Assembly: GCA_902500005.1 (NCBI GenBank)
Contig: GCA_902500005.1_3678.1
Reading direction: 5' to 3' (one strand)
DNA: 64,000 nt
Source: Escherichia coli
Lineage (GTDB): Bacteria; Pseudomonadota; Gammaproteobacteria; Enterobacterales; Enterobacteriaceae
The notes below the pieces were generated by a model. That model saw only the letters and a program-made list of their open reading frames with translations, was not told the origin of the DNA and ran no database searches. The first letter of the stretch is position 1. The number at the start of each line of letters is the position of its first letter. Of this stretch, positions 5,029-63,958 are shown in pieces. The position numbers and the translations under genes were made by a program.

Positions 5029-5056
5029 GCCCTCGCTTCGGCGGGGGCTTTTTGTT
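5029..5056 (+). terminator. rho-independent terminator (GCTTCGGC-loop hairpin + T-run)
   Basis: gccctcgcttcggcgggggc followed by tttttgtttg. Confidence 0.55.
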
Positions 5057-5120
5057 TGTATTGCGTATTAACTTAAAATCTGGTAAAATAACTATCATGA
5101 TTGTTTAACCTGGAGGCACA

Positions 5121-10296: not shown

Positions 10297-10324
10297 GCCC
10301 CGCTTCGGCGGGGTTTATTTTTAT
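10297..10324 (+). terminator. rho-independent terminator
   Basis: gccccgcttcggcgggg hairpin + tttattttt. Confidence 0.55.
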
Positions 10325-10393
10325 GCTCAGATTGACTATTGTTACAAAATTTGGTAAAATACCTTGTAGAGATTTTCATACCGGAGGAGTGAC

Positions 10394-29222: not shown

Positions 29223-29486
29223 TCAGAAACCCTCTAAAAAGCTCTTGTAGAAAACAATCTCAGTATCCACACCAGTCACAATCTTGTCGTTCCTGATTTC
29301 ATCGGTAAGATAGGTGTCAAAACGCAGAACCTGTGTGGTGTTGTCACACATCCACTCAGCTGTGACCATTGCGAAAATCTTAGCATCTTCATTATCTGGT
29401 GTGAATGTTACCACCTCACCGCACTTAAACTTTTCGATAGGCTGAGTGTTAGCTTTCGGTTCTGCGATAGTGATTTTTGTGGTCAT
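29223..29486 (-). CDS. small paralog family member 3 (87 aa)
   Basis: …KCGEVVTF… / …VTGVDTEIVF… align with members 1 and 2. Confidence 0.5.
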   Translation of the reverse strand: MTTKITIAEPKANTQPIEKFKCGEVVTFTPDNEDAKIFAMVTAEWMCDNTTQVLRFDTYLTDEIRNDKIVTGVDTEIVFYKSFLEGF

Positions 29487-29749
29487 TATTCTCCTCCTTC
29501 TTTTGAATAGCTTGTCTCTCCAAGGATGGTAATTTTGGTGTCAAGCTCTGTAACTTTCATGTTTGGCGGCAGATCGTACAACTCATTATTTTCTAAATCG
29601 AACCCCCACACACAATGTTCTCCTGTTTTGACAATCATAACTATGTTTTGAATGCCGTCTCCGTCGCAACTTACCACGGTCCCACACGGAAAACTGTCTG
29701 CACGCTTTTTGTTCTTCACCTTAGAATTGAATACAATGCTGGTAGCCAT
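29486..29749 (-). CDS. small paralog family member 2 (87 aa)
   Basis: MAT…K.KK…GTVV…IVK…FDL…LP…VTELD..ITILGE shared with member 1. Confidence 0.5.
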   Translation of the reverse strand: MATSIVFNSKVKNKKRADSFPCGTVVSCDGDGIQNIVMIVKTGEHCVWGFDLENNELYDLPPNMKVTELDTKITILGETSYSKEGGE

Positions 29750-30012
29750 TATTGTTCCTCCACCATAACTTCGCCAAGAATTTCTATGCAGGCATCCATT
29801 TCTGTAACAACCAAACTGTGAGGTAGTTCTACAAACACCTTTCTGAACAGATCAAATACCCCAACATATATGTTTGCAGGATGTGATTTTACAACAAGTG
29901 CTGTATTCACATCCCCAAGTTCATCAACAAACATCACCACAGTGCCTGGAGCTACTGAGGACAGATACTTCTTAGTTTTACGGTTTGATGCAAATTTTAA
30001 CTCTGTTGCCAT
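29749..30012 (-). CDS. small paralog family member 1 (87 aa)
   Basis: ATG after GAGGAGG; same length and motifs as member 2. Confidence 0.5.
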   Translation of the reverse strand: MATELKFASNRKTKKYLSSVAPGTVVMFVDELGDVNTALVVKSHPANIYVGVFDLFRKVFVELPHSLVVTEMDACIEILGEVMVEEQ

Positions 30013-30027
30013 AAATAACCTCCTCTC

Positions 30028-31488
30028 TTACTTAGCGTACTCGATTAATTCCACAGTTTTCCCAAAGCTCGGGATATAATTTTTATTATACCCCTCAGTG
30101 AGGACCCATAGAGTATCGTACTTTTTCCACTTGTTGTCAACAACCTTTTGTTCAAAGTTATGCTCAAAGTATAGGTCGGTCAGGACGATGACATCTTTTG
30201 CATTAGGTATGTTGGCATCCAGATACTCGAACACGCAAGCAGCTGTTGTGCCCCATGTTGAGTGGACCTCATAGTTGATCATCTCATCTATGTTACCGCG
30301 AGTGTATACTTTAACCTCTCCAACCTCAGTTGACCAACAGAACATTGTAACCTTAAACTCTTTATACAGATTGCACAATCCGGTGATTTCATTGAACATT
30401 TTCTTTAAAGTTCTTTGAGAGATCGAGCCAGAAACGTCTAAAGCTACAACAATATCTATGGTGTTTTCCGGATTACGACCAGGAACAATAACGTGCTGGT
30501 TCTTGTTTATAGCCCCAACTTTTCGCATTGTGCTGGTCAAAGACCCAGATCGGCGACCAGGTTTTCTGTAGGTCAGTTCAGCCTTTCGTTTAGACAACAT
30601 GCGTTGCTTAATGATGTCTATATAGTTGATTACAGGCTTACCCCTGTTCTTGACAAACTCACGCACCGCCTCAGGGCAACGACCTCCGGAAGCTTGCATT
30701 GCTGCCTCCAGCATATCACCAGAGTCCTGCATGGCCTGATCTTTATCAGATTGACTGATTACAGGTTGTGGCTGATCATACCCCATAGCCTTTCCAAGAT
30801 TATCACTGGTGCCACCGTTCCCACTCATGTGATCATCGGTTTGTCGCTTATCACTTTGAGAGTTCTCACCTTTACCGTTCTTACTTTTACCGTTATTCTG
30901 ATCTCTTTGCTTATCAAGAACTGCATAAACGTTCTCAGCAATCCATCCATGAAACTTCATGTCGCAGTAGCAGCTGGCTAAGAAGCCAAAAGGCTTACCT
31001 TTCATGAACGTAGTGCTTTTCCCCTTCGGGAAGAAAACACAAGGAGGTTTGCTAAAGTCAACCACAAGGCCTGTGTTGATAACGTGATCACAAGCAATAT
31101 TGAACAGTTCCGGCTCAAAGCTTTTACCACGGACTAGGTGATCACAGATAATATGCCCCACCTCATGTGACAGAAGGAAGGCCACCTCTTTCACAGATTT
31201 TGGGGAATAGAAAACTTCAGCCATCTCAAACTGCTCGTCAGTTAGAGAAGCCTTAAGAATAGCCTTGCGCTCATCAGCCAATCCCATAATGAACTCAGGA
31301 CTGTAATAGATGCGTTTATGGTCGGTTGCCATGGTGGAGCACCATGTGTGGTTTTCTACGAACTGCAACCCTGACAGTAGTGTGCCATAAAACGGCAGCT
31401 TTTCAAGGAGATACATACGTGCAGCCTGCAACATTCTCAGGGCATCATCTTTTTGTGAGGCAATGATTTCTGAACTTCTGCTATCCAT
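30028..31488 (-). CDS. metallopeptidase-domain + von Willebrand A domain protein (DUF2201-like)
   Basis: HExxH motif (SHEVGHIICDH) in N-terminal half; vWA MIDAS motif (VVALDVSGS) in C-terminal half; ATG at 31488 after GGAG (track start is TTG). Confidence 0.65.
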   Translation of the reverse strand: MDSRSSEIIASQKDDALRMLQAARMYLLEKLPFYGTLLSGLQFVENHTWCSTMATDHKRIYYSPEFIMGLADERKAILKASLTDEQFEMAEVFYSPKSVKEVAFLLSHEVGHIICDHLVRGKSFEPELFNIACDHVINTGLVVDFSKPPCVFFPKGKSTTFMKGKPFGFLASCYCDMKFHGWIAENVYAVLDKQRDQNNGKSKNGKGENSQSDKRQTDDHMSGNGGTSDNLGKAMGYDQPQPVISQSDKDQAMQDSGDMLEAAMQASGGRCPEAVREFVKNRGKPVINYIDIIKQRMLSKRKAELTYRKPGRRSGSLTSTMRKVGAINKNQHVIVPGRNPENTIDIVVALDVSGSISQRTLKKMFNEITGLCNLYKEFKVTMFCWSTEVGEVKVYTRGNIDEMINYEVHSTWGTTAACVFEYLDANIPNAKDVIVLTDLYFEHNFEQKVVDNKWKKYDTLWVLTEGYNKNYIPSFGKTVELIEYAK

Positions 31489-31521: not shown

Positions 31522-32562
31522 TTATTTAACGTGTTTGAAAATACCTGCCAACTCGGTCATTGTCATGCGGGTGGTCTTCATAAGATCTGTCATAGCTTTC
31601 TCCATAATTGGAGATACTACCATAAAGTTTCCTTTAGTGAAACCTTTATTCCAGTCGGTCACCAACAGGGGTTTAAGTCCAGCTCCAAGACGTTCACCAG
31701 TTAAAGCACAGCATTTGCGAATATACGAACTCTTAAATTGGCTGAACGACAGATCAACTTTCATACCTACATCGTAGAACGTTTGGCAATAGAAAGTGTA
31801 AGCTTTGGCAATCTCAACATCATCAGGTAGTGCAGGAACCTCTTCTGTAAGCTCCTCTTCGACCCCTTGAGTCTCTTTTTCCTCTTCATGCACCTGTTGC
31901 GTCATTTCTTCAATCTCTTCTGTGATAGGCTCGTTTACAATGTCGGAAATGTGCTTCTTGGGTGCACGATAAGTAACTTTAGACATCGGTAGCATATCTT
32001 CCTCCTCTTCTTCGTCAAAGAGTGCTAGTTTATCCTCTTCCGTTCCATATTGCAAGATGAAATCTTCAAAAGTATAATCACCTTTCAATTTCTCCATACG
32101 CTCTTCGCTCAGGTGGAGCATCATCTGCTGGACAATTTTTCGATCAGTTTCGTCTTTAATCAAGACTGCAGTCTTTTTATCTACCAGACAGTCCTTTAGA
32201 GAGTTGCATCTCAATCCCACCACACAACAGTTATCAACCGCATAAGGACCTTCATCATCTATCCGCTCCAGAGATGGGTAGAAAGGATTCCCCAGCCCGT
32301 TTTCATCTGTGTGCATGTCAAAAGGTATAAGGGTATAGTCGCATACTCCATCTCCTAAAAGTTTTTTACCAAATAGGAGGTATTCTTCCCATGACAGGTC
32401 GAACTCTATATCTCGTTTCCGTGCGTTATTCTGTTTGCGTCTATATTTTTTGAGCAAGCGCTCTAACTCTTCTGGTGTATAATATTTTTCAAGATTCATG
32501 AGTCGTCTCTCGTGCTCTGTAAGTGAAGAAATCGTATCAATTGTCTCAACAGATGTCAACAT
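31522..32562 (-). CDS. HNH-like (His-Me finger) domain protein with acidic linker (347 aa)
   Basis: …PSLERIDDEGPYAVDNCCVVGLRCNSLK resembles HNH endonuclease signature (from memory); poly-Glu linker; internal Met preceded by GAGGAGG. Confidence 0.45.
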   Translation of the reverse strand: MLTSVETIDTISSLTEHERRLMNLEKYYTPEELERLLKKYRRKQNNARKRDIEFDLSWEEYLLFGKKLLGDGVCDYTLIPFDMHTDENGLGNPFYPSLERIDDEGPYAVDNCCVVGLRCNSLKDCLVDKKTAVLIKDETDRKIVQQMMLHLSEERMEKLKGDYTFEDFILQYGTEEDKLALFDEEEEEDMLPMSKVTYRAPKKHISDIVNEPITEEIEEMTQQVHEEEKETQGVEEELTEEVPALPDDVEIAKAYTFYCQTFYDVGMKVDLSFSQFKSSYIRKCCALTGERLGAGLKPLLVTDWNKGFTKGNFMVVSPIMEKAMTDLMKTTRMTMTELAGIFKHVK

Positions 32563-32572
32563 CAAAAACGTG

Positions 32573-32601
32573 TTGACTTTACTCTAACTCCACAATATAG
32601 T
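32573..32601 (+). promoter_or_regulatory. sigma70-like promoter in divergent intergenic region
   Basis: TTGACT-17 nt-TATAGT, about 40 nt upstream of 32642 gene. Confidence 0.45.
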
Positions 32602-32641
32602 GCACCCATTCGAAAGAAAACTAACATAGGAGCACTTACTT

Positions 32642-33541
32642 ATGGCAAATCTTAACAGTTTTAGTACGCGGTGGAAACAGGACATAACAACCAATCTTTC
32701 AGCTGGGGACATCCTTTCTGCAATTTACGAGGCTTTAGATGATAAAGCTACTTCAAAAGCGGTTTGTACCAACCCATTAATTCCTATAGTGATGAAGGTT
32801 ATTGAGCGTAGATTGGTATCTGGGTCTGATAAGTGGACATATTTAGATAATGAAGGACACACCTATTCCAATGGGTATGTCGATATAAAAGTAGAATACG
32901 CGGTATCATACCGCCGGAGCGGTTCTGTAACTTTCAACTTCTCTGGAGGTTTTCGATCTCTGGCTACCTCACCTTTTGTTTCCTCAGAGGAGAAGTATGA
33001 GCTGCCATTTCTTTGGATGATGGCTAACGCGACAGGAAAAACCCCCGTTAGCATCCGAGTAAAATACAACTACAACGGATCTAGTAAGATCTATGCCGAA
33101 AGTGTCTCAGCAAGTTTTTATTTTGTGATGGGGGATGGAATCCTTAAACATATAAAGATGTGCGATATGCATGATGTTATAAATGAAGTGACTGATAAGA
33201 ATGTTCTAGTGAAAGACCTCAACAATTTTTATACACCCGGAGACTATTACGTCAGCCGTCCACTGTGCATCTTTAATGCCGCACACCCTCTAGGTGAGTA
33301 TTTGATCGCCAATAGCGATATTGCCAATAACCGCTTCGAGGTAGCAAGAGTTCAGAATGAGGTATTGACATCTTGCAAGAGCGGTGATAAGTTTACCGAA
33401 GAAGAGATGGGTGTTTTAGAAATGATGGGATATAAGTGTAGCCTTTGGGTAGATGAGGTGTTTAATGATTGCATCTATGGACAGGATATTTACCCATTAA
33501 AGAAGTATACTGATACAAGTTTAATTTATGCGAGGGTTTGA
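32642..33541 (+). CDS. hypothetical protein (299 aa)
   Basis: ATG with TAGGAG RBS; first gene of rightward block. Confidence 0.5.
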   Translation: MANLNSFSTRWKQDITTNLSAGDILSAIYEALDDKATSKAVCTNPLIPIVMKVIERRLVSGSDKWTYLDNEGHTYSNGYVDIKVEYAVSYRRSGSVTFNFSGGFRSLATSPFVSSEEKYELPFLWMMANATGKTPVSIRVKYNYNGSSKIYAESVSASFYFVMGDGILKHIKMCDMHDVINEVTDKNVLVKDLNNFYTPGDYYVSRPLCIFNAAHPLGEYLIANSDIANNRFEVARVQNEVLTSCKSGDKFTEEEMGVLEMMGYKCSLWVDEVFNDCIYGQDIYPLKKYTDTSLIYARV

Positions 33542-33543
33542 CT

Positions 33544-33816
33544 ATGATGAAGGCATGTGGTAATGTATATTACGTCGGTGAACATGTTCAGGCAGACAGT
33601 GTGTGGAAATCTATTAAGTCCACCACTGACGATGCCTTTCTGAGTGGACTATGTTTCCCCAATCCGGGAGACATCCTCCCTCATCCTGGAGATTTTGTTG
33701 TCAACAAGATGGACGGTTATACCGTGTGCCTGATGGTTGAAAAAATCTTTTTAGACACTAGACACAATCACCGTCTTGTGTTAAAATTTCAAGAATGTAA
33801 AATGACAATTGCCTAA
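33544..33816 (+). CDS. hypothetical protein (90 aa)
   Basis: ATG 7 nt after GAGGG (track start 33538 is TTG). Confidence 0.4.
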   Translation: MMKACGNVYYVGEHVQADSVWKSIKSTTDDAFLSGLCFPNPGDILPHPGDFVVNKMDGYTVCLMVEKIFLDTRHNHRLVLKFQECKMTIA

Positions 33817-33829
33817 GGAGACCTTACCG

Positions 33830-34186
33830 ATGTCTAAAGTTACTTATCGTGCAGCTATTTACTGCAATGAACACCCAATCAATAATGATGGTCACTGCCT
33901 TTTTAAAGAAAATCAATTGGGCTGTATTGTCCTCCCTGATGAAGGGGAAGGTTATCTTATTGCATTGACAGGGTTTGAACCTGAGGCTCTGGAAGCCAAT
34001 CTGGACTACCTGGTAGAAGAGGGTGCTGCAGACCTGGTTGCCAATGGCCTCTCCATAAGCCTTGACGAAGTAGAGCGCTTCATGGGCAATTACCGTGTAG
34101 TGCGTGAGTTTACTATCGAGGTGGAAACTCCGGAGTGGGGTAGCCATGAAACTAATGCCGAAGAAAAAGAAGAGGAGGTAGAATAA
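33830..34186 (+). CDS. acidic hypothetical protein (118 aa)
   Basis: ATG 8 nt after AAGGAG (track start 33809 is TTG); acidic C-terminus. Confidence 0.45.
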   Translation: MSKVTYRAAIYCNEHPINNDGHCLFKENQLGCIVLPDEGEGYLIALTGFEPEALEANLDYLVEEGAADLVANGLSISLDEVERFMGNYRVVREFTIEVETPEWGSHETNAEEKEEEVE

Positions 34187-34870: not shown

Positions 34871-35140
34871 ATGTTATACCAGCAATATGAACTTCGTGCA
34901 GAAAAAGAGTTAAATTTTGACAAAGATATTCACAGATATTATTATGGGAAAGTTAGAGGGCAAGCAAGAAAGTGTACTCCAACACTCTTTTATGCCAGCA
35001 GACGACTAGCGCCAGAAGAGGCAACAGCAGAAAGGGTTGCGTACAACTGGAGAGTCACGTATGATATTGACAGATTCGATGTGATATCTGTTTTGGAAAA
35101 CTTTGAAAACACTTACACACAAGTAGAGGACTTTTACTAA
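34871..35140 (+). CDS. hypothetical protein (89 aa)
   Basis: ATG with GGAG RBS. Confidence 0.4.
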   Translation: MLYQQYELRAEKELNFDKDIHRYYYGKVRGQARKCTPTLFYASRRLAPEEATAERVAYNWRVTYDIDRFDVISVLENFENTYTQVEDFY

Positions 35141-36324
35141 TGTCAAGAAACGTATTCGAAAGTGGTCAAATCACTGTCCGTGAGTTGCCAGCTATTATTC
35201 AGTTTGCCCAACGTCATAGCCGATCTGTCCTAATTTTGGGACCAATGGGTGTGGGTAAAAGCCAGGTGATGAAGCAGATCGCTGATAATATGTTCGGTGA
35301 GCGAGATGACAACCTTGTTGACGTGCGACTGTCAGATAAAGATCCTGCCGACTTATCTGGGCTACCTATCCCTGTAGAAGCGGATGGAACTACACGTACA
35401 GTGTTTGCAATTCCAGAATTTTGGCCTGCGGATCCTGACTGGAGCGGAATTATCTTTCTGGATGAGCTCACTCATGCAGATAACTACCTGCAAAAGGTTG
35501 CAATGCAAATTATGCTTGACCACAAGTGCGGCACCTATGCATTCCCTAAGGGTTCTGTTTTTGTGGCTGCGGGTAACCGTTCTACAGATGGTGCGGTTCT
35601 TTCGGCGCTCGAAGCCCCTCTGGCTAACCGTTTTATCATTGTAGAGGTTACAAGCAATGCAGAGGTGTTTATTGAGGACTACGCATTCCTTAATGGGGTG
35701 CATTCCTCTGTAATTGGATATTTGAAAAGAGTTCCATCAGCTATTGATAATTATGAGGCTATGGCTGAGATTAATTGTCCATCTTTTGCCACACCACGAT
35801 CTTGGGTTGCTGCATCTGACATCTTGCACGATTTTGACAGCGGTATTATTTCTGACGCTATGGCCCGTGTTCTTCTGCAAGGTGCTATTGGTCACACTGC
35901 AGCGGTAGAGATCTGGACATACCACACCAAGAAACGCAATTTACCGGAAATCGGTCGGATTATGGCAGGTGGCTGCAAAGAATACGTAGGTCCTAAGCAG
36001 CCAGACATTTTGTGGATTCTTGGATCTGAAGGTTGTATCGCTATTCGTAATATGATGGAAAATGCAAGTATCTCAGACGAAGATCTTGTCAGCTGCGTGG
36101 CAAACTTCCTCGATTTCCTTTGGGAAAACTTCAAGGACGAGAACCGAGATTTTGTATTCTCAGTCTTTATGGCGATGATGAAACCTAATGCCTTAGGAAA
36201 TGCCTTGCTTATCGGTAAAGGGCGTGACAAGATTGTTGCTCAGCTGATCAAAGCATACCCAAACCTGATGAAGATTGTAAAAGAGTTTGGTGAAGAGTTT
36301 AGCGCCATTTTGGCTAAAGCTTAA
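35140..36324 (+). CDS. AAA+ ATPase, MoxR/CbbQ (AAA_5) type
   Basis: Walker A ILGPMGVGKSQ; Walker B IIFLDELTHA; sensor-1 VFVAAGNRS. Confidence 0.75.
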   Translation: MSRNVFESGQITVRELPAIIQFAQRHSRSVLILGPMGVGKSQVMKQIADNMFGERDDNLVDVRLSDKDPADLSGLPIPVEADGTTRTVFAIPEFWPADPDWSGIIFLDELTHADNYLQKVAMQIMLDHKCGTYAFPKGSVFVAAGNRSTDGAVLSALEAPLANRFIIVEVTSNAEVFIEDYAFLNGVHSSVIGYLKRVPSAIDNYEAMAEINCPSFATPRSWVAASDILHDFDSGIISDAMARVLLQGAIGHTAAVEIWTYHTKKRNLPEIGRIMAGGCKEYVGPKQPDILWILGSEGCIAIRNMMENASISDEDLVSCVANFLDFLWENFKDENRDFVFSVFMAMMKPNALGNALLIGKGRDKIVAQLIKAYPNLMKIVKEFGEEFSAILAKA

Positions 36325-36725: not shown

Positions 36726-36754
36726 CTCCCCCGCTTCGGCGGGGATTTTCTATT
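36726..36754 (+). terminator. rho-independent terminator
   Basis: cccccgcttcggcgggg hairpin + attttctattt. Confidence 0.5.
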
Positions 36755-36764
36755 TGGAGTCATT

Positions 36765-43430: not shown

Positions 43431-43457
43431 GCCCTGCCCGAAAGGGTGGGGCTTTTT
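43431..43457 (+). terminator. rho-independent terminator (GAAA tetraloop hairpin), copy 1 of 2
   Basis: gccctgcccgaaagggtggggc + tttttg; identical hairpin at 55048. Confidence 0.55.
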
Positions 43458-55047: not shown

Positions 55048-55076
55048 GCCCTGCCCGAAAGGGTGGGGCATTTTTG
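55048..55076 (+). terminator. rho-independent terminator, copy 2 of identical hairpin
   Basis: gccctgcccgaaagggtggggc + atttttg. Confidence 0.55.
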
Positions 55077-59110: not shown

Positions 59111-59206
59111 TTGTTACGGAGGGTAATTAGCATGCTAATTAAATTTATTAAATGCGAGGGATTCTTATTTAGAATTTTGAATGATAATTATTCTCGTTTG
59201 CAGAAT

Positions 59207-59386
59207 AACGGGCAGGCCCGGTGATTGTCTCCCGGCCCCTGCTGCCCCGGCTTGTTATTATAGTATCACACAGGACAAAGAAGGCAAGGATTTTTTGCAT
59301 AAATTTTTAAATGATAATGATAACCGTTCTCATTTTATGAAGCGCCCATCCCCGGTGGTTGTCTCCCCCGTCACCGGTGCCTGCCG
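59207..59386. repeat. GC-rich repeat elements (two direct copies); inverted copy at 63888-63931
   Basis: ggcaggcccggtgattgtctccc (59207) and ccggtggttgtctcccccgtcaccggtgcctgcc (59350); reverse complement at 63890-63931. Confidence 0.5.
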
Positions 59387-60537: not shown

Positions 60538-60933
60538 ATGAATAAGAACGTACGCCGCATCATGAACGAACTGGCAAACGATGAAAAAATTATTGATATG
60601 CATTTGGTCAACATTTGCCGCCGTTGTGTAACATATAACAACCGCGCCGCAAAAGCGCGTGAGATGAACGCAAAAGGCACCTTAAAGCCCTTTCAGGTGG
60701 TTGTAAAATCTATAACTAGCGCAGCAGGCCAGGCGCAGGACCACAACAACGAGAGCGCTAATATTGATCCGTCTTACGTAATGAAACGGATCCGGACTTG
60801 CAAGAATAAAGAGCAGGTATATAACGTCATAGATTGGCTGGACTCCCTGGGCGATGTGGTTTACAATAGGTTTTCTGCAGCTATCGAGATCCAGCTTGAC
60901 AGATTGGACGGGAAAGTACTAAAAACTTATTGA
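60538..60933 (+). CDS. hypothetical protein (131 aa)
   Basis: ATG after AAGGAAAAAG. Confidence 0.45.
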   Translation: MNKNVRRIMNELANDEKIIDMHLVNICRRCVTYNNRAAKAREMNAKGTLKPFQVVVKSITSAAGQAQDHNNESANIDPSYVMKRIRTCKNKEQVYNVIDWLDSLGDVVYNRFSAAIEIQLDRLDGKVLKTY

Positions 60934-60951
60934 GTTTATTTTTAGATGGCC

Positions 60952-60981
60952 TTGACACCAGGGCCATCAATAAAGTAAACT
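60952..60981 (+). promoter_or_regulatory. sigma70-like promoter inside a palindrome (copy 1 of a 45-bp direct repeat)
   Basis: ATGGCC-TTGACACCAG-GGCCAT; -10 TAAACT; 45-bp repeat 60936-60980 = 61557-61601. Confidence 0.5.
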
Positions 60982-61212: not shown

Positions 61213-61554
61213 ATGACTACTATGACCGCCTCAGAAAAAGCTATGCAGATCGCTGAACTGAAAAAACAGATCGCAGACCTTGAGAATAAGATCGATAACT
61301 TTGAAATCGACGAGGACAAGTACGACGAAAACTATGATGAATGGTTAGACGAGATCTACGGCGAAATTATGATCGGAAACATTTCTTTTCTTCCGTCGCG
61401 TATCCTCAAGGAGCTAGATCCTATCGCTTACCGCTGCGGATTTAGCGACTACATCGACAGCCTGGATATTGAGGACGATGAAGAATACCAGGAATTACAG
61501 ACAGAGTTAGAAGAAGCAAAAGAAGAGCTTGCGGAGCTGGAAGAAAACGAGTAA
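61213..61554 (+). CDS. highly acidic coiled-coil protein (113 aa)
   Basis: ATG after AAGGAG; Asp/Glu-rich (…DEDKYDENYDEWLDEIYGE…DIEDDEEYQELQTELEEAKEELAELEENE). Confidence 0.45.
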   Translation: MTTMTASEKAMQIAELKKQIADLENKIDNFEIDEDKYDENYDEWLDEIYGEIMIGNISFLPSRILKELDPIAYRCGFSDYIDSLDIEDDEEYQELQTELEEAKEELAELEENE

Positions 61555-61572
61555 GCTTATTTTTAGATGGCC

Positions 61573-61602
61573 TTGACACCAGGGCCATCAATAAAGTAAA
61601 CT
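61573..61602 (+). promoter_or_regulatory. sigma70-like promoter inside a palindrome (copy 2 of the 45-bp direct repeat)
   Basis: Identical to 60936-60980 element. Confidence 0.5.
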
Positions 61603-61643: not shown

Positions 61644-61889
61644 ATGGCAGCACTAATCACCAAATATTATGCCCCTACCAACACCAAAAGCGCCCGTATC
61701 ATGGTAAAAGGCTTCGGACGTAAAAAGGTGTACACCTGGGATTATGCCTTAGACACGGAAGACAACTACACCAACGCAATGACCGATTTTATTAATGAAC
61801 TAAATAAGCAGATCTTGACAAGTTATAAAGTGACCGATATTGCTTATATAGGTGAAGGCGGGATCTGTTTTGTAGGCATTGTGAAATAG
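61644..61889 (+). CDS. hypothetical protein (81 aa)
   Basis: ATG after TAGGAG. Confidence 0.45.
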   Translation: MAALITKYYAPTNTKSARIMVKGFGRKKVYTWDYALDTEDNYTNAMTDFINELNKQILTSYKVTDIAYIGEGGICFVGIVK

Positions 61890-61963
61890 TTATTTTTTCG
61901 GTGGTCCTGGTTGCAGGGCCATCTATAAAGATAATTTATTAACACCATGAAAGGAGAAAGTAC

Positions 61964-63887: not shown

Positions 63888-63931
63888 CAGGCACCTGGCG
63901 ACGGGGGGGGGGGAGACAATCACCGGGCCTG
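63888..63931. repeat. inverted copy of the 59.2-59.4 kb GC-rich element, containing a G11 homopolymer tract
   Basis: cggcaggcacctggcgacg-G11-agacaatcaccgggcctgcc is the reverse complement of the 59350/59207 elements; G-run 63903-63913. Confidence 0.5.
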
Positions 63932-63958
63932 CCTGTCATATAAGAACTATAAAAACCG

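Follow-up and report, generated by a model that had tools for sequence, protein, structure and literature searches.

A perfect 29-bp inverted repeat in an rV5-like E. coli phage is very probably the footprint of one templated mutation, which would have occurred in the ancestor of the Murica/FFH2/LL12/pangalan group. The window, that is, the whole 64-kb stretch of DNA analysed here, comes from such a phage (Vequintavirus) and shares 99.6% identity with pangalan and Murica. The 29-mer pair is its sole perfect long inverted repeat. The sequence TACCGATGTCTAAAGTTACTTATCGTGCA occurs at 33825-33853 on the plus strand and at 31963-31991 on the minus strand with 0 mismatches, exactly as the first-pass annotation had claimed, and the two arms are separated by 1,833 nt. 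No third copy was found in the window at up to 3 mismatches, and a wider scan of the window allowing up to 9 mismatches returned the same two sites only. The repeat had been called unlikely by chance, which was borne out by 100 shuffles (0 29-mer matches expected).

Other parts of the initial description were also correct. In each copy, SKVTYRA follows an in-frame ATG, and the internal copy is preceded by GAGGAGG and a poly-Glu run. The arms do flank a divergent promoter region: a consensus scan located a divergent sigma-70-type promoter pair at 32531..32601 between them, consisting of TTGACA-17-TACGAT on the minus strand (32559->32531) and TTGACT-17-TATAGT on the plus strand (32573-32601). 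A promoter annotation at this divergent region is also present in the rV5 and Gotham records.

The plus-strand copy (33825..33853) covers the initiation region of a 118-aa gene (33830..34186, plus strand), a homologue of rV5 ORF8 that matches phrog_12908 and has no assigned function. The reported start at 33830 is the true start of this gene, with the Shine-Dalgarno sequence AAGGAG (33815-33820) located 9 nt ahead of the ATG. The 29-mer takes in the last 5 nt of the spacer between the two and codons 1-8 (MSKVTYRA). Exact copies were found at this place in phages without the second copy (rV5 and at least 30 others), and copies with 1-3 mismatches were found in two IMG/VR relatives (L003, L004). 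All of the rV5-like (Vequintavirus) relatives read carry the ORF8-start copy, either exact or with 1-3 mismatches. In a sister group of 65% identity, the ORF8 homologue begins with MKVVVL, which aligns with Tyr6, and the MSKVT start is therefore restricted to the rV5-like genus.

The minus-strand copy (31963..31991, exact match) lies inside a gene for an Srd-like protein of 325 aa (31522..32499, minus strand), the homologue of rV5 gp11. The 347-aa gene described in the first pass is an artefact of the ORF caller, because its TTG (32565) and ATG (32562) starts precede the -35 hexamer of the promoter that serves this gene; in most records the gene begins with the ATG at 32499 and encodes 325 aa. 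The protein has a Cys-rich domain at its N-terminus and a conserved domain at its C-terminus, joined by a hypervariable acidic linker. In the homologue alignment, the acidic linker is the most variable and indel-rich stretch. AF2 gave a weak model overall (pLDDT 49 with an 11-sequence alignment; 34 and unusable with the single sequence), in which linker residues 167-225 had the lowest pLDDT and were coil only. The minus-strand copy is located in this linker and codes for (L)PMSKVTYRA at residues about 170-179.

The labels of the Srd-like gene conflict between records (anti-sigma factor, HNH endonuclease, anti-termination protein, restriction endonuclease). Its product best matched phrog_3118 ('HNH endonuclease', E = 1.8e-112, residues 3-324); weaker matches were to the decoy-of-sigma70 phrog_4592 (E = 8.9e-13), the Srd phrog_1400 (E = 6.3e-10) and an endonuclease VII phrog, and a Pfam scan of the protein gave no match. 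The RefSeq label 'HNH endonuclease (x2)' hinted at paralogy of the Srd-like and 118-aa genes. The two proteins are assigned to different PHROG families, and no similarity beyond the 8 shared residues was seen by eye.

The first-pass annotation had suggested looking for the 29-mer in related genomes, and this gave a divided answer: the plus-strand copy is present in every rV5-like relative read, but the minus-strand copy in a subset only. The latter was found only in 28 GenBank records and one gut-metagenome contig (L020). At its place, rV5, AlexBoehm, I29, JeffSchatz, slur16, EmilHeitz, L003 and L004 have an unrelated linker that is 12 nt longer (a match of 98 nt versus 86 nt in the window), and this longer linker is kept in rV5 and at least 30 other phages. 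The longer form MSPMQDFKNFMADRAANKHIS is homologous to the linker of the 65%-identity sister group MTPAQELREFMEKRAEKHIK. The presence of the plus-strand copy in all relatives read, the restriction of the minus-strand copy to a subset and the homology of the outgroup linker to the longer form show that the plus-strand copy is ancestral and the minus-strand copy derived. The two copies are thus called donor and recipient below.

Alignment of the derived, ancestral and donor DNA localized the change. A 13-nt core TCTAAAGTTACTT (31971..31983, minus strand) took the place of 25 nt of the ancestral linker, CAGGATTTTAAAAATTTCATGGCTG, which shortened the gene by 12 nt, or 4 codons; judged from this alignment, the core is the sole part that was certainly newly written. 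On its left side, ACCGATG (31984..31990, minus strand) already exists in the rV5-type ancestral linker and provides a 7-nt microhomology with the donor (rV5 recipient TCACCGATG versus donor TTACCGATG). On its right side, ATCGTGCA (31963..31970, minus strand) is part of the ancestral ATCGTGCAGC, which gives a 10-nt microhomology (recipients of rV5, AlexBoehm, I29 and L004 GATCGTGCAGCC versus donor TATCGTGCAGCT). The ancestral linker thus reads ...GATATG TC ACCGATG [25 nt] ATCGTGCAGC C..., and the ORF8 start reads ...T ACCGATG [13 nt] ATCGTGCAGC T.... The swap of 25 for 13 nt together with C->T at the first base of the repeat (plus A->G in some backgrounds) makes the recipient equal to the donor over all 29 nt. 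Because ACCGATG and ATCGTGCAGC existed beforehand in the ancestral linker, a single microhomology-guided event replacing 25 nt by 13 donor nt, in frame, would be sufficient. The microhomology itself needs no special explanation, since shuffles gave about 32 chance inverted pairs with 10 + 7 nt of microhomology within 3 kb per 64 kb.

The patch arose once. Every derived allele fetched (Murica, Gotham, nomine, A51.2, PMBT16, Alma, ECP32 and the metagenome contig L020) has the same junctions and the same private flanking bases (CTA, CCC AAG), and this common junction shows, on the alleles compared, a single origin. Apart from ECP32, whose background is mosaic, the carriers group in one tight clade. 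Comparison of the alleles likewise shows that the two copies have drifted independently after the event: the donor varies as TGCCG in nomine, A51.2 and PMBT16, as TACCT plus GCT in Alma and as TATCA in ECP32, and a donor variant was never mirrored in the recipient of the same phage (the ECP32 recipient reads TACCT). Three untemplated base changes abut the patch, TC->CT to its left and GCC AAC -> CCC AAG to its right, which would have to come from substitutions after the event, from error-prone synthesis or from an immediate ancestor that was not sampled. A patch without these private changes gave 0 matches in IMG/VR and was not found in the JGI/ENA metagenomes, where the 1 match was identical to the window allele. 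A 9-mer at about 32598 was considered as a template for the right flank GTGCACCCA, but about 0.5 such matches are expected by chance.

These data suggest the following course. By chance, the ancestral linker would have formed an imperfect inverted repeat with the ORF8 start 1.8 kb away. In the course of replication, or of recombination-dependent repair, an elongating 3' end just past ACCGATG in the linker could have annealed to the identical heptamer at ORF8 on the other strand, copied TCTAAAGTTACTT-ATCGTGCA there and returned through the ATCGTGCA(GC) microhomology. The outcome would be the in-frame change of QDFKNFMAD to SKVTY within an acidic linker that is disordered and evolves fast, and a perfect inverted repeat of 29 nt; the patch may then have spread by descent and mosaic recombination. 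We infer that the molecular route was either strand-switch template switching or short-patch ectopic gene conversion. The features of template switching are mostly present: one reverse-complement copy reproduces both the substitution cluster and the 12-nt deletion, an imperfect inverted repeat or microhomology was already in place at both switch points, and the donor is unchanged and ancestral while the recipient is derived relative to outgroups. Donor and recipient are usually less than a few hundred nt apart, but here the distance is 1,833 nt, which makes an ordinary intra-fork switch less likely than a recombination-associated one. This 1.8-kb distance was the only unusual feature of the event. 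The patch was probably a tolerated change, whose neutrality we assume.

A later use of the patch was also considered. It seems very unlikely that it was co-opted, either for low-frequency inversion of the 1.8-kb divergent-promoter segment or as an internal promoter or start for the Srd C-domain. If inversion had been co-opted, it would produce a fusion of the Srd N-domain with ORF8 and a free Srd C-domain under the ORF8 ribosome-binding site; if any such co-option were true, a templated micro-mutation would have created a new gene architecture in a lytic phage. The promoter version of this idea, in which the patch and the adjacent TC->CT gave rise to a new signal for expression of the Srd C-terminal domain from within the gene, is highly improbable. 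The candidate is a weak sigma-70-like promoter, TTGACG-16-TATGCT (32018->31991), ending 4 nt before the AUG; a transcript from it could be leaderless or have a short leader, and could give the Srd C-terminal domain an ORF8-type start. It scored 9/12 matches in the scan, and the sixth base of its -10 hexamer is T in the derived allele alone. However, 9/12 is a weak match, the candidate has no extended -10, and 8 such sites were counted in the region versus 6.6 expected by chance.

Inversion of 31992-33824 driven by the 29-bp arms, one of the roles first proposed for the repeat, is very improbable on the genomes compared. The geometry permits it, phage recombination systems are in general able to use short homologies, and inversion in silico leaves two intact in-frame ORFs. 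In one of these chimeras the Srd N-domain would be joined to the body of ORF8; in the other, the Srd C-domain would follow the ORF8 initiation region. But the predicted junction was found in 0 of the 114 related genomes, and all of the full-region matches listed are colinear single pieces. A Pfam and PHROG scan of the six genes in or beside the segment detected no invertase, integrase or other recombinase. The arms are not conserved as a pair, one of them being absent from rV5 and at least 30 other phages. Inversion would also split the N- from the C-terminal half of the Srd-like gene and reverse the fucosyltransferase-like operon.

The 29-mer had also been proposed as a shared translational operator of the T4 RegA type, which would coordinate ORF8 with an internally initiated Srd C-terminal isoform. 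An identical sense 29-mer with an AUG is indeed present in both mRNAs, and the internal copy is preceded by a purine-rich, SD-like run. The comparative data make this reading extremely unlikely, since the internal copy is missing from rV5 and most of the genus, each copy drifts on its own, even in the 5 nt ahead of the AUG, and the patch Met172 is Ala in the sister clade. The motif is thus not conserved across related genomes, and the ORF8 N-terminus is not conserved outside the genus. Of the two copies, only that on the plus strand is annotated as a start and has a well-spaced SD; the minus-strand copy is internal. The suggested internal start fared no better: its ATG is older than the patch and not conserved, and the 14 nt between it and the upstream GAGGAGG (32001-32007) are too many for a good Shine-Dalgarno. 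The same run is 5 nt upstream of the Met169 ATG (31993-31995). Met169 is nearly invariant across homologues (Thr in P0019), but a conserved internal start or an ancient gene fusion at this position was not supported; no split-gene relative was found among the homologues, and the short P0017, P0018 and P0021 look frameshifted or truncated. Pairing between the two mRNAs was rejected, as both transcripts bear the sense copy.

It is hardly credible that the derived linker was imported from an unsampled phage in which it was native, with its identity to ORF8 coincidental or due to older shared ancestry: the region is mosaic among relatives and the three flanking substitutions are unexplained by the donor, but the patch is 29/29 identical to a sequence 1.8 kb off in the same genome (0 matches in 100 shuffles), and no other source of the motif was found in the phage, IMG/VR and metagenome collections.

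Independent drift, the lack of inverted genomes (0/114) and the non-conserved patch Met all argue against a function, and the 29-mer pair is probably a neutral mutational footprint with no sign of a regulatory or inversion role. The first-pass idea of a duplicated translation-initiation module came close to the comparative data, by which the 5 nt ahead of the 118-aa gene and its first 8 codons were copied, inverted, into the Srd-like gene; the functional readings offered beside it were not supported. These results caution that a repeat which is impossible by chance and covers start codons can be a neutral scar rather than a regulatory element, and comparison with close relatives quickly tells the two apart. 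They also provide a clean, polarised natural case of microhomology-guided templated mutation over 1.8 kb, between two genes on opposite strands, in which five to nine linker residues would have been rewritten in one step. To our knowledge, such templated mutations are rarely documented in lytic phages. Events of this kind are a possible source of multi-residue innovation and of spurious 'motifs'.

Among known systems, rV5 gp11 was called an Srd homologue in the rV5 paper (PMC3606486). The 325-aa gene resembles T4 Srd in matching PHROGs annotated as Srd anti-sigma factor or decoy of sigma-70, but its best match is the 'HNH endonuclease' profile and it has no Pfam domain. The 29-mer repeat has nothing to do with the putative Srd function. 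The Gin/G segment of Mu and the Cin/C segment of P1 likewise have short inverted repeats inside coding regions, where inversion would swap protein C-termini in frame. Unlike in these and other Hin-type systems, the six genes scanned here hold no adjoining invertase, no alternative orientation was seen among the 114 genomes, the repeat is of recent origin and lacks conservation as a pair, and the genes on either side do not encode tail-fibre variants. The present case shares with short-patch ectopic gene conversion and MMBIR/FoSTeS a short non-allelic tract, 7-10 nt of microhomology, a kilobase range and possibly nearby untemplated errors; here, however, a clean patch of 13-21 nt is seen with no visible break, rearrangement or copy-number change. 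Template-switch (quasi-palindrome) mutation, described by Ripley's model and generalised in the four-point model of Loytynoja and Goldman (PMC5453318), is also known in yeast coding genes (PMC8604942). In such mutations, as here, an imperfect inverted repeat becomes perfect, one reverse-complement copy explains substitutions and an indel, microhomology is present at the switch points, and several adjacent residues in a coding region are replaced. The classical arms described in the literature are tens to hundreds of nt apart, whereas here they are separated by 1,833 nt, lie in two genes on opposite strands and are accompanied by three untemplated adjacent changes. The event works like a template switch, although not like the classical local one.

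Two exact copies of the 29-mer TACCGATGTCTAAAGTTACTTATCGTGCA are present in the window, at 33825-33853 (+) and 31963-31991 (-). No third copy with up to 3 mismatches was found in the window, a scan at up to 9 mismatches returned the same two sites only, and the 64-kb window has no other long inverted repeat that is perfect. No match to the 29-mer was observed in 100 dinucleotide-preserving shuffles. These results confirmed the first-pass annotation, which had described two exact inverted copies as improbable by chance; the repeat is real and far beyond chance. The plus copy (the donor) takes in the final 5 nt of the spacer behind the SD sequence AAGGAG (33815-33820, +) and codons 1-8 of a 118-aa gene (33830-34186, +), the homologue of rV5 ORF8. 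The minus copy (the recipient) lies in the acidic linker (...EEEEEDMLPMSKVTYRAPKKH...) between the two conserved halves of a 325-aa Srd-like protein (31522-32499, -), the homologue of rV5 gp11. Between the two genes are located a divergent sigma-70-type promoter pair (32531-32601; sources include the rV5 paper, PMC3606486), a gene annotated 'fucosyltransferase' (32642-33541, +) and a 90-aa gene (33544-33816, +).

The window is from an rV5-like E. coli myovirus, genus Vequintavirus. Its 2.9-kb region matches 119 GenBank phage records, with 99.6% identity to pangalan, Murica, CM1 and other phages. A search of relatives for the 29-mer, proposed at first pass, separated the two copies: the ORF8 copy is present in relatives, and the linker copy is limited to 28 GenBank records and one human-gut metagenome contig. 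At least 31 other GenBank records, rV5 included, carry the exact 29-mer at ORF8 only, and their linker is about 73% identical over 98 nt versus 86 nt in the window. Two IMG/VR relatives (L003 and L004, 90-92% protein identity) keep the plus copy with 1-3 mismatches and lack the linker copy; their linker, ...EDMSPMQDFKNFMA(N/D)R(G/A)ANKHIS, is four residues longer. A homologous linker (...MTPAQELREFMEKRAEKHIK) also occurs in the more distant relatives at 65% identity, so the long linker is ancestral and the linker with MSKVTYRA derived.

The ancestor, donor and window were aligned on the Srd coding strand in five columns (left flank, left microhomology, middle, right microhomology, right flank). 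The rV5-type ancestor reads GATATG TC, ACCGATG, CAGGATTTTAAAAATTTCATGGCTG (25 nt), ATCGTGCAGC and C; the donor, which is the ORF8 start, reads GAGACCT T, ACCGATG, TCTAAAGTTACTT (13 nt), ATCGTGCAGC and T; and the derived window allele reads GATATG CT, ACCGATG, TCTAAAGTTACTT (13 nt), ATCGTGCA and CCC. Inverted microhomology of 7 nt and 10 nt was already common to recipient and donor, and 15 of the 29 repeat bases pre-date the event. Shuffled sequence contains about 32 chance pairs of such microhomology per 64 kb (a 10-mer and a 7-mer within 40 nt, inverted, at most 3 kb apart), so the pre-existing quasi-repeat needs no special cause. The 25 nt between the microhomologies were swapped for the donor's 13 nt, a net loss of 12 nt in frame. 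Three changes adjoining the patch have no donor template (TC to CT on the left, GCC AAC to CCC AAG on the right), and no intermediate allele was found in IMG/VR and metagenome searches. We consider it very likely that the repeat arose in a single event, in which the ORF8 start served as template and was copied into the Srd-like linker under the guidance of microhomology; the change was probably neutral and was inherited by one rV5-like sub-lineage.

The junctions and private flanks are identical in all derived alleles fetched, and trees built from the two halves of the Srd gene place these alleles in a tight clade. In ECP32 the derived allele is the same, but its background is mosaic and more divergent. 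TGCCG is restricted to the donor in nomine, A51.2 and PMBT16; Alma has TACCT and GTT to GCT in the donor copy alone; and in ECP32 the recipient reads TACCT and the donor TATCA. Through such independent changes the perfect repeat was lost in 5 of the 28 derived-allele records. Judged from these variants, the arms do not co-evolve and the repeat is not maintained; the shared junctions and flanks give the derived alleles a single origin.

The first-pass annotation had offered several interpretations, and only the footprint of a duplicated initiation module stands. For a recombination or inversion site, inversion in silico gives two in-frame chimeras, which makes rare recombinants between the arms possible. 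No sign of a programmed inversion switch was seen: 0 of 114 records covered at least 80% of the predicted inversion junction, the full-region matches listed were all single colinear pieces, and no recombinase was found by Pfam and PHROG among the six neighbouring genes scanned. A shared translational operator, or an internal start at the patch Met, was not borne out. The patch ATG is older than the patch (ancestral ...CCGATG...), the sister clade has Ala at this position, GAGGAGG lies 14 nt from the ATG, and the MSKVT start of ORF8 is confined to this genus. Met169 is nearly invariant in a linker that is hypervariable elsewhere (motif EE.M.P; the distant homologue P0019 has Thr) and follows GAGGAGG at a good to ideal 5-nt spacing (31993-32007, -); for these two reasons it would be a better candidate for an internal start than the patch Met. 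A weak promoter-like site (TTGACG-16-TATGCT, 32018->31991, -) adjoins the patch; position 6 of its -10 hexamer is T in the derived allele only. The scan found 8 such sites versus 6.6 expected, so as an internal promoter the site is within noise. Pairing between the two mRNAs was dismissed, since both carry the sense copy and cannot pair with each other.

The 325-aa protein matched phrog_3118 (E = 1.8e-112), with weaker matches to the Srd, decoy-of-sigma70 and endonuclease VII phrogs; a Pfam scan found no domain in it. Its rV5 homologue gp11 was named a Srd homologue (PMC3606486). The patch falls in an indel-rich segment, the most variable one in the family, and AF2 modelled residues 167-225 as coil with the lowest confidence (pLDDT 26-32; weak model, mean pLDDT 49). 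The change from nine residues to five is likely tolerated in this segment. The 347-aa length assigned at first pass was revised: this start lies upstream of the -35 hexamer in the gene's own promoter, which makes 325 aa the preferred gene model. Public annotations give 311, 325 or 346-347 aa depending on the start codon, and their putative labels for the protein and its homologues conflict (anti-sigma factor, HNH endonuclease, anti-termination protein, type II restriction endonuclease, hypothetical protein).

Other features were also observed. A VWA-domain 'metallopeptidase' gene (30028-31488, -) and a MoxR-type AAA+ ATPase gene (35140-36324, +) lie on either side of the locus, on opposite strands. 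Proteins of the MoxR and VWA types usually act as a pair, so the conserved split of their genes, one on each side of the divergent promoter, may merit attention. Downstream of the VWA gene, three abutting tandem 87-aa ORFs (29223-29486, 29486-29749 and 29749-30012, -) appear by eye to have a short motif in common (G(E/T)VV, then hydrophobic residues and MV or VV) and may form a small array of paralogous genes. Near-identical terminator-like hairpins of two families, each followed by a T-run, recur at several sites in the window: CCCCGCTTCGGCGGGG (5031-5058, 10298-10325, 36729-36756) and GCCCTGCCCGAAAGGGTGGGGC (43431-43457, 55048-55074). A second long inverted repeat (59205-59239 / 63905-63939) is 35 nt, GC-rich and 89% complementary, with arms 4.7 kb apart. 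No tRNA genes were found across the window. Sixteen 'Campylobacter phage' GenBank records (MG065635, MG065655, MG065654 and others; stated host C. jejuni) show 98-99% identity over the region to the E. coli rV5-like phages described here, and their host assignment looks doubtful.

A 49-nt intergenic direct repeat is present in three copies (60933-60981, 61554-61602, 61888-61936; 98% and 71% identity to the reference copy), each with TTGACA within a GC-rich stem-loop (GATGGCCTTGACACCAGGGCCATC), and is reminiscent of the early-region promoter-stem-loop repeats of other large lytic phages. For the 29-bp repeat, the comparison is with textbook template switching, from which it departs by the 1,833-nt spacer between its arms. 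A spacer of this length favours short-patch ectopic conversion or a long-range, recombination-associated switch over an intra-fork slip. The event is a known kind of mutation, and its 1.8-kb reach is the sole unusual trait.
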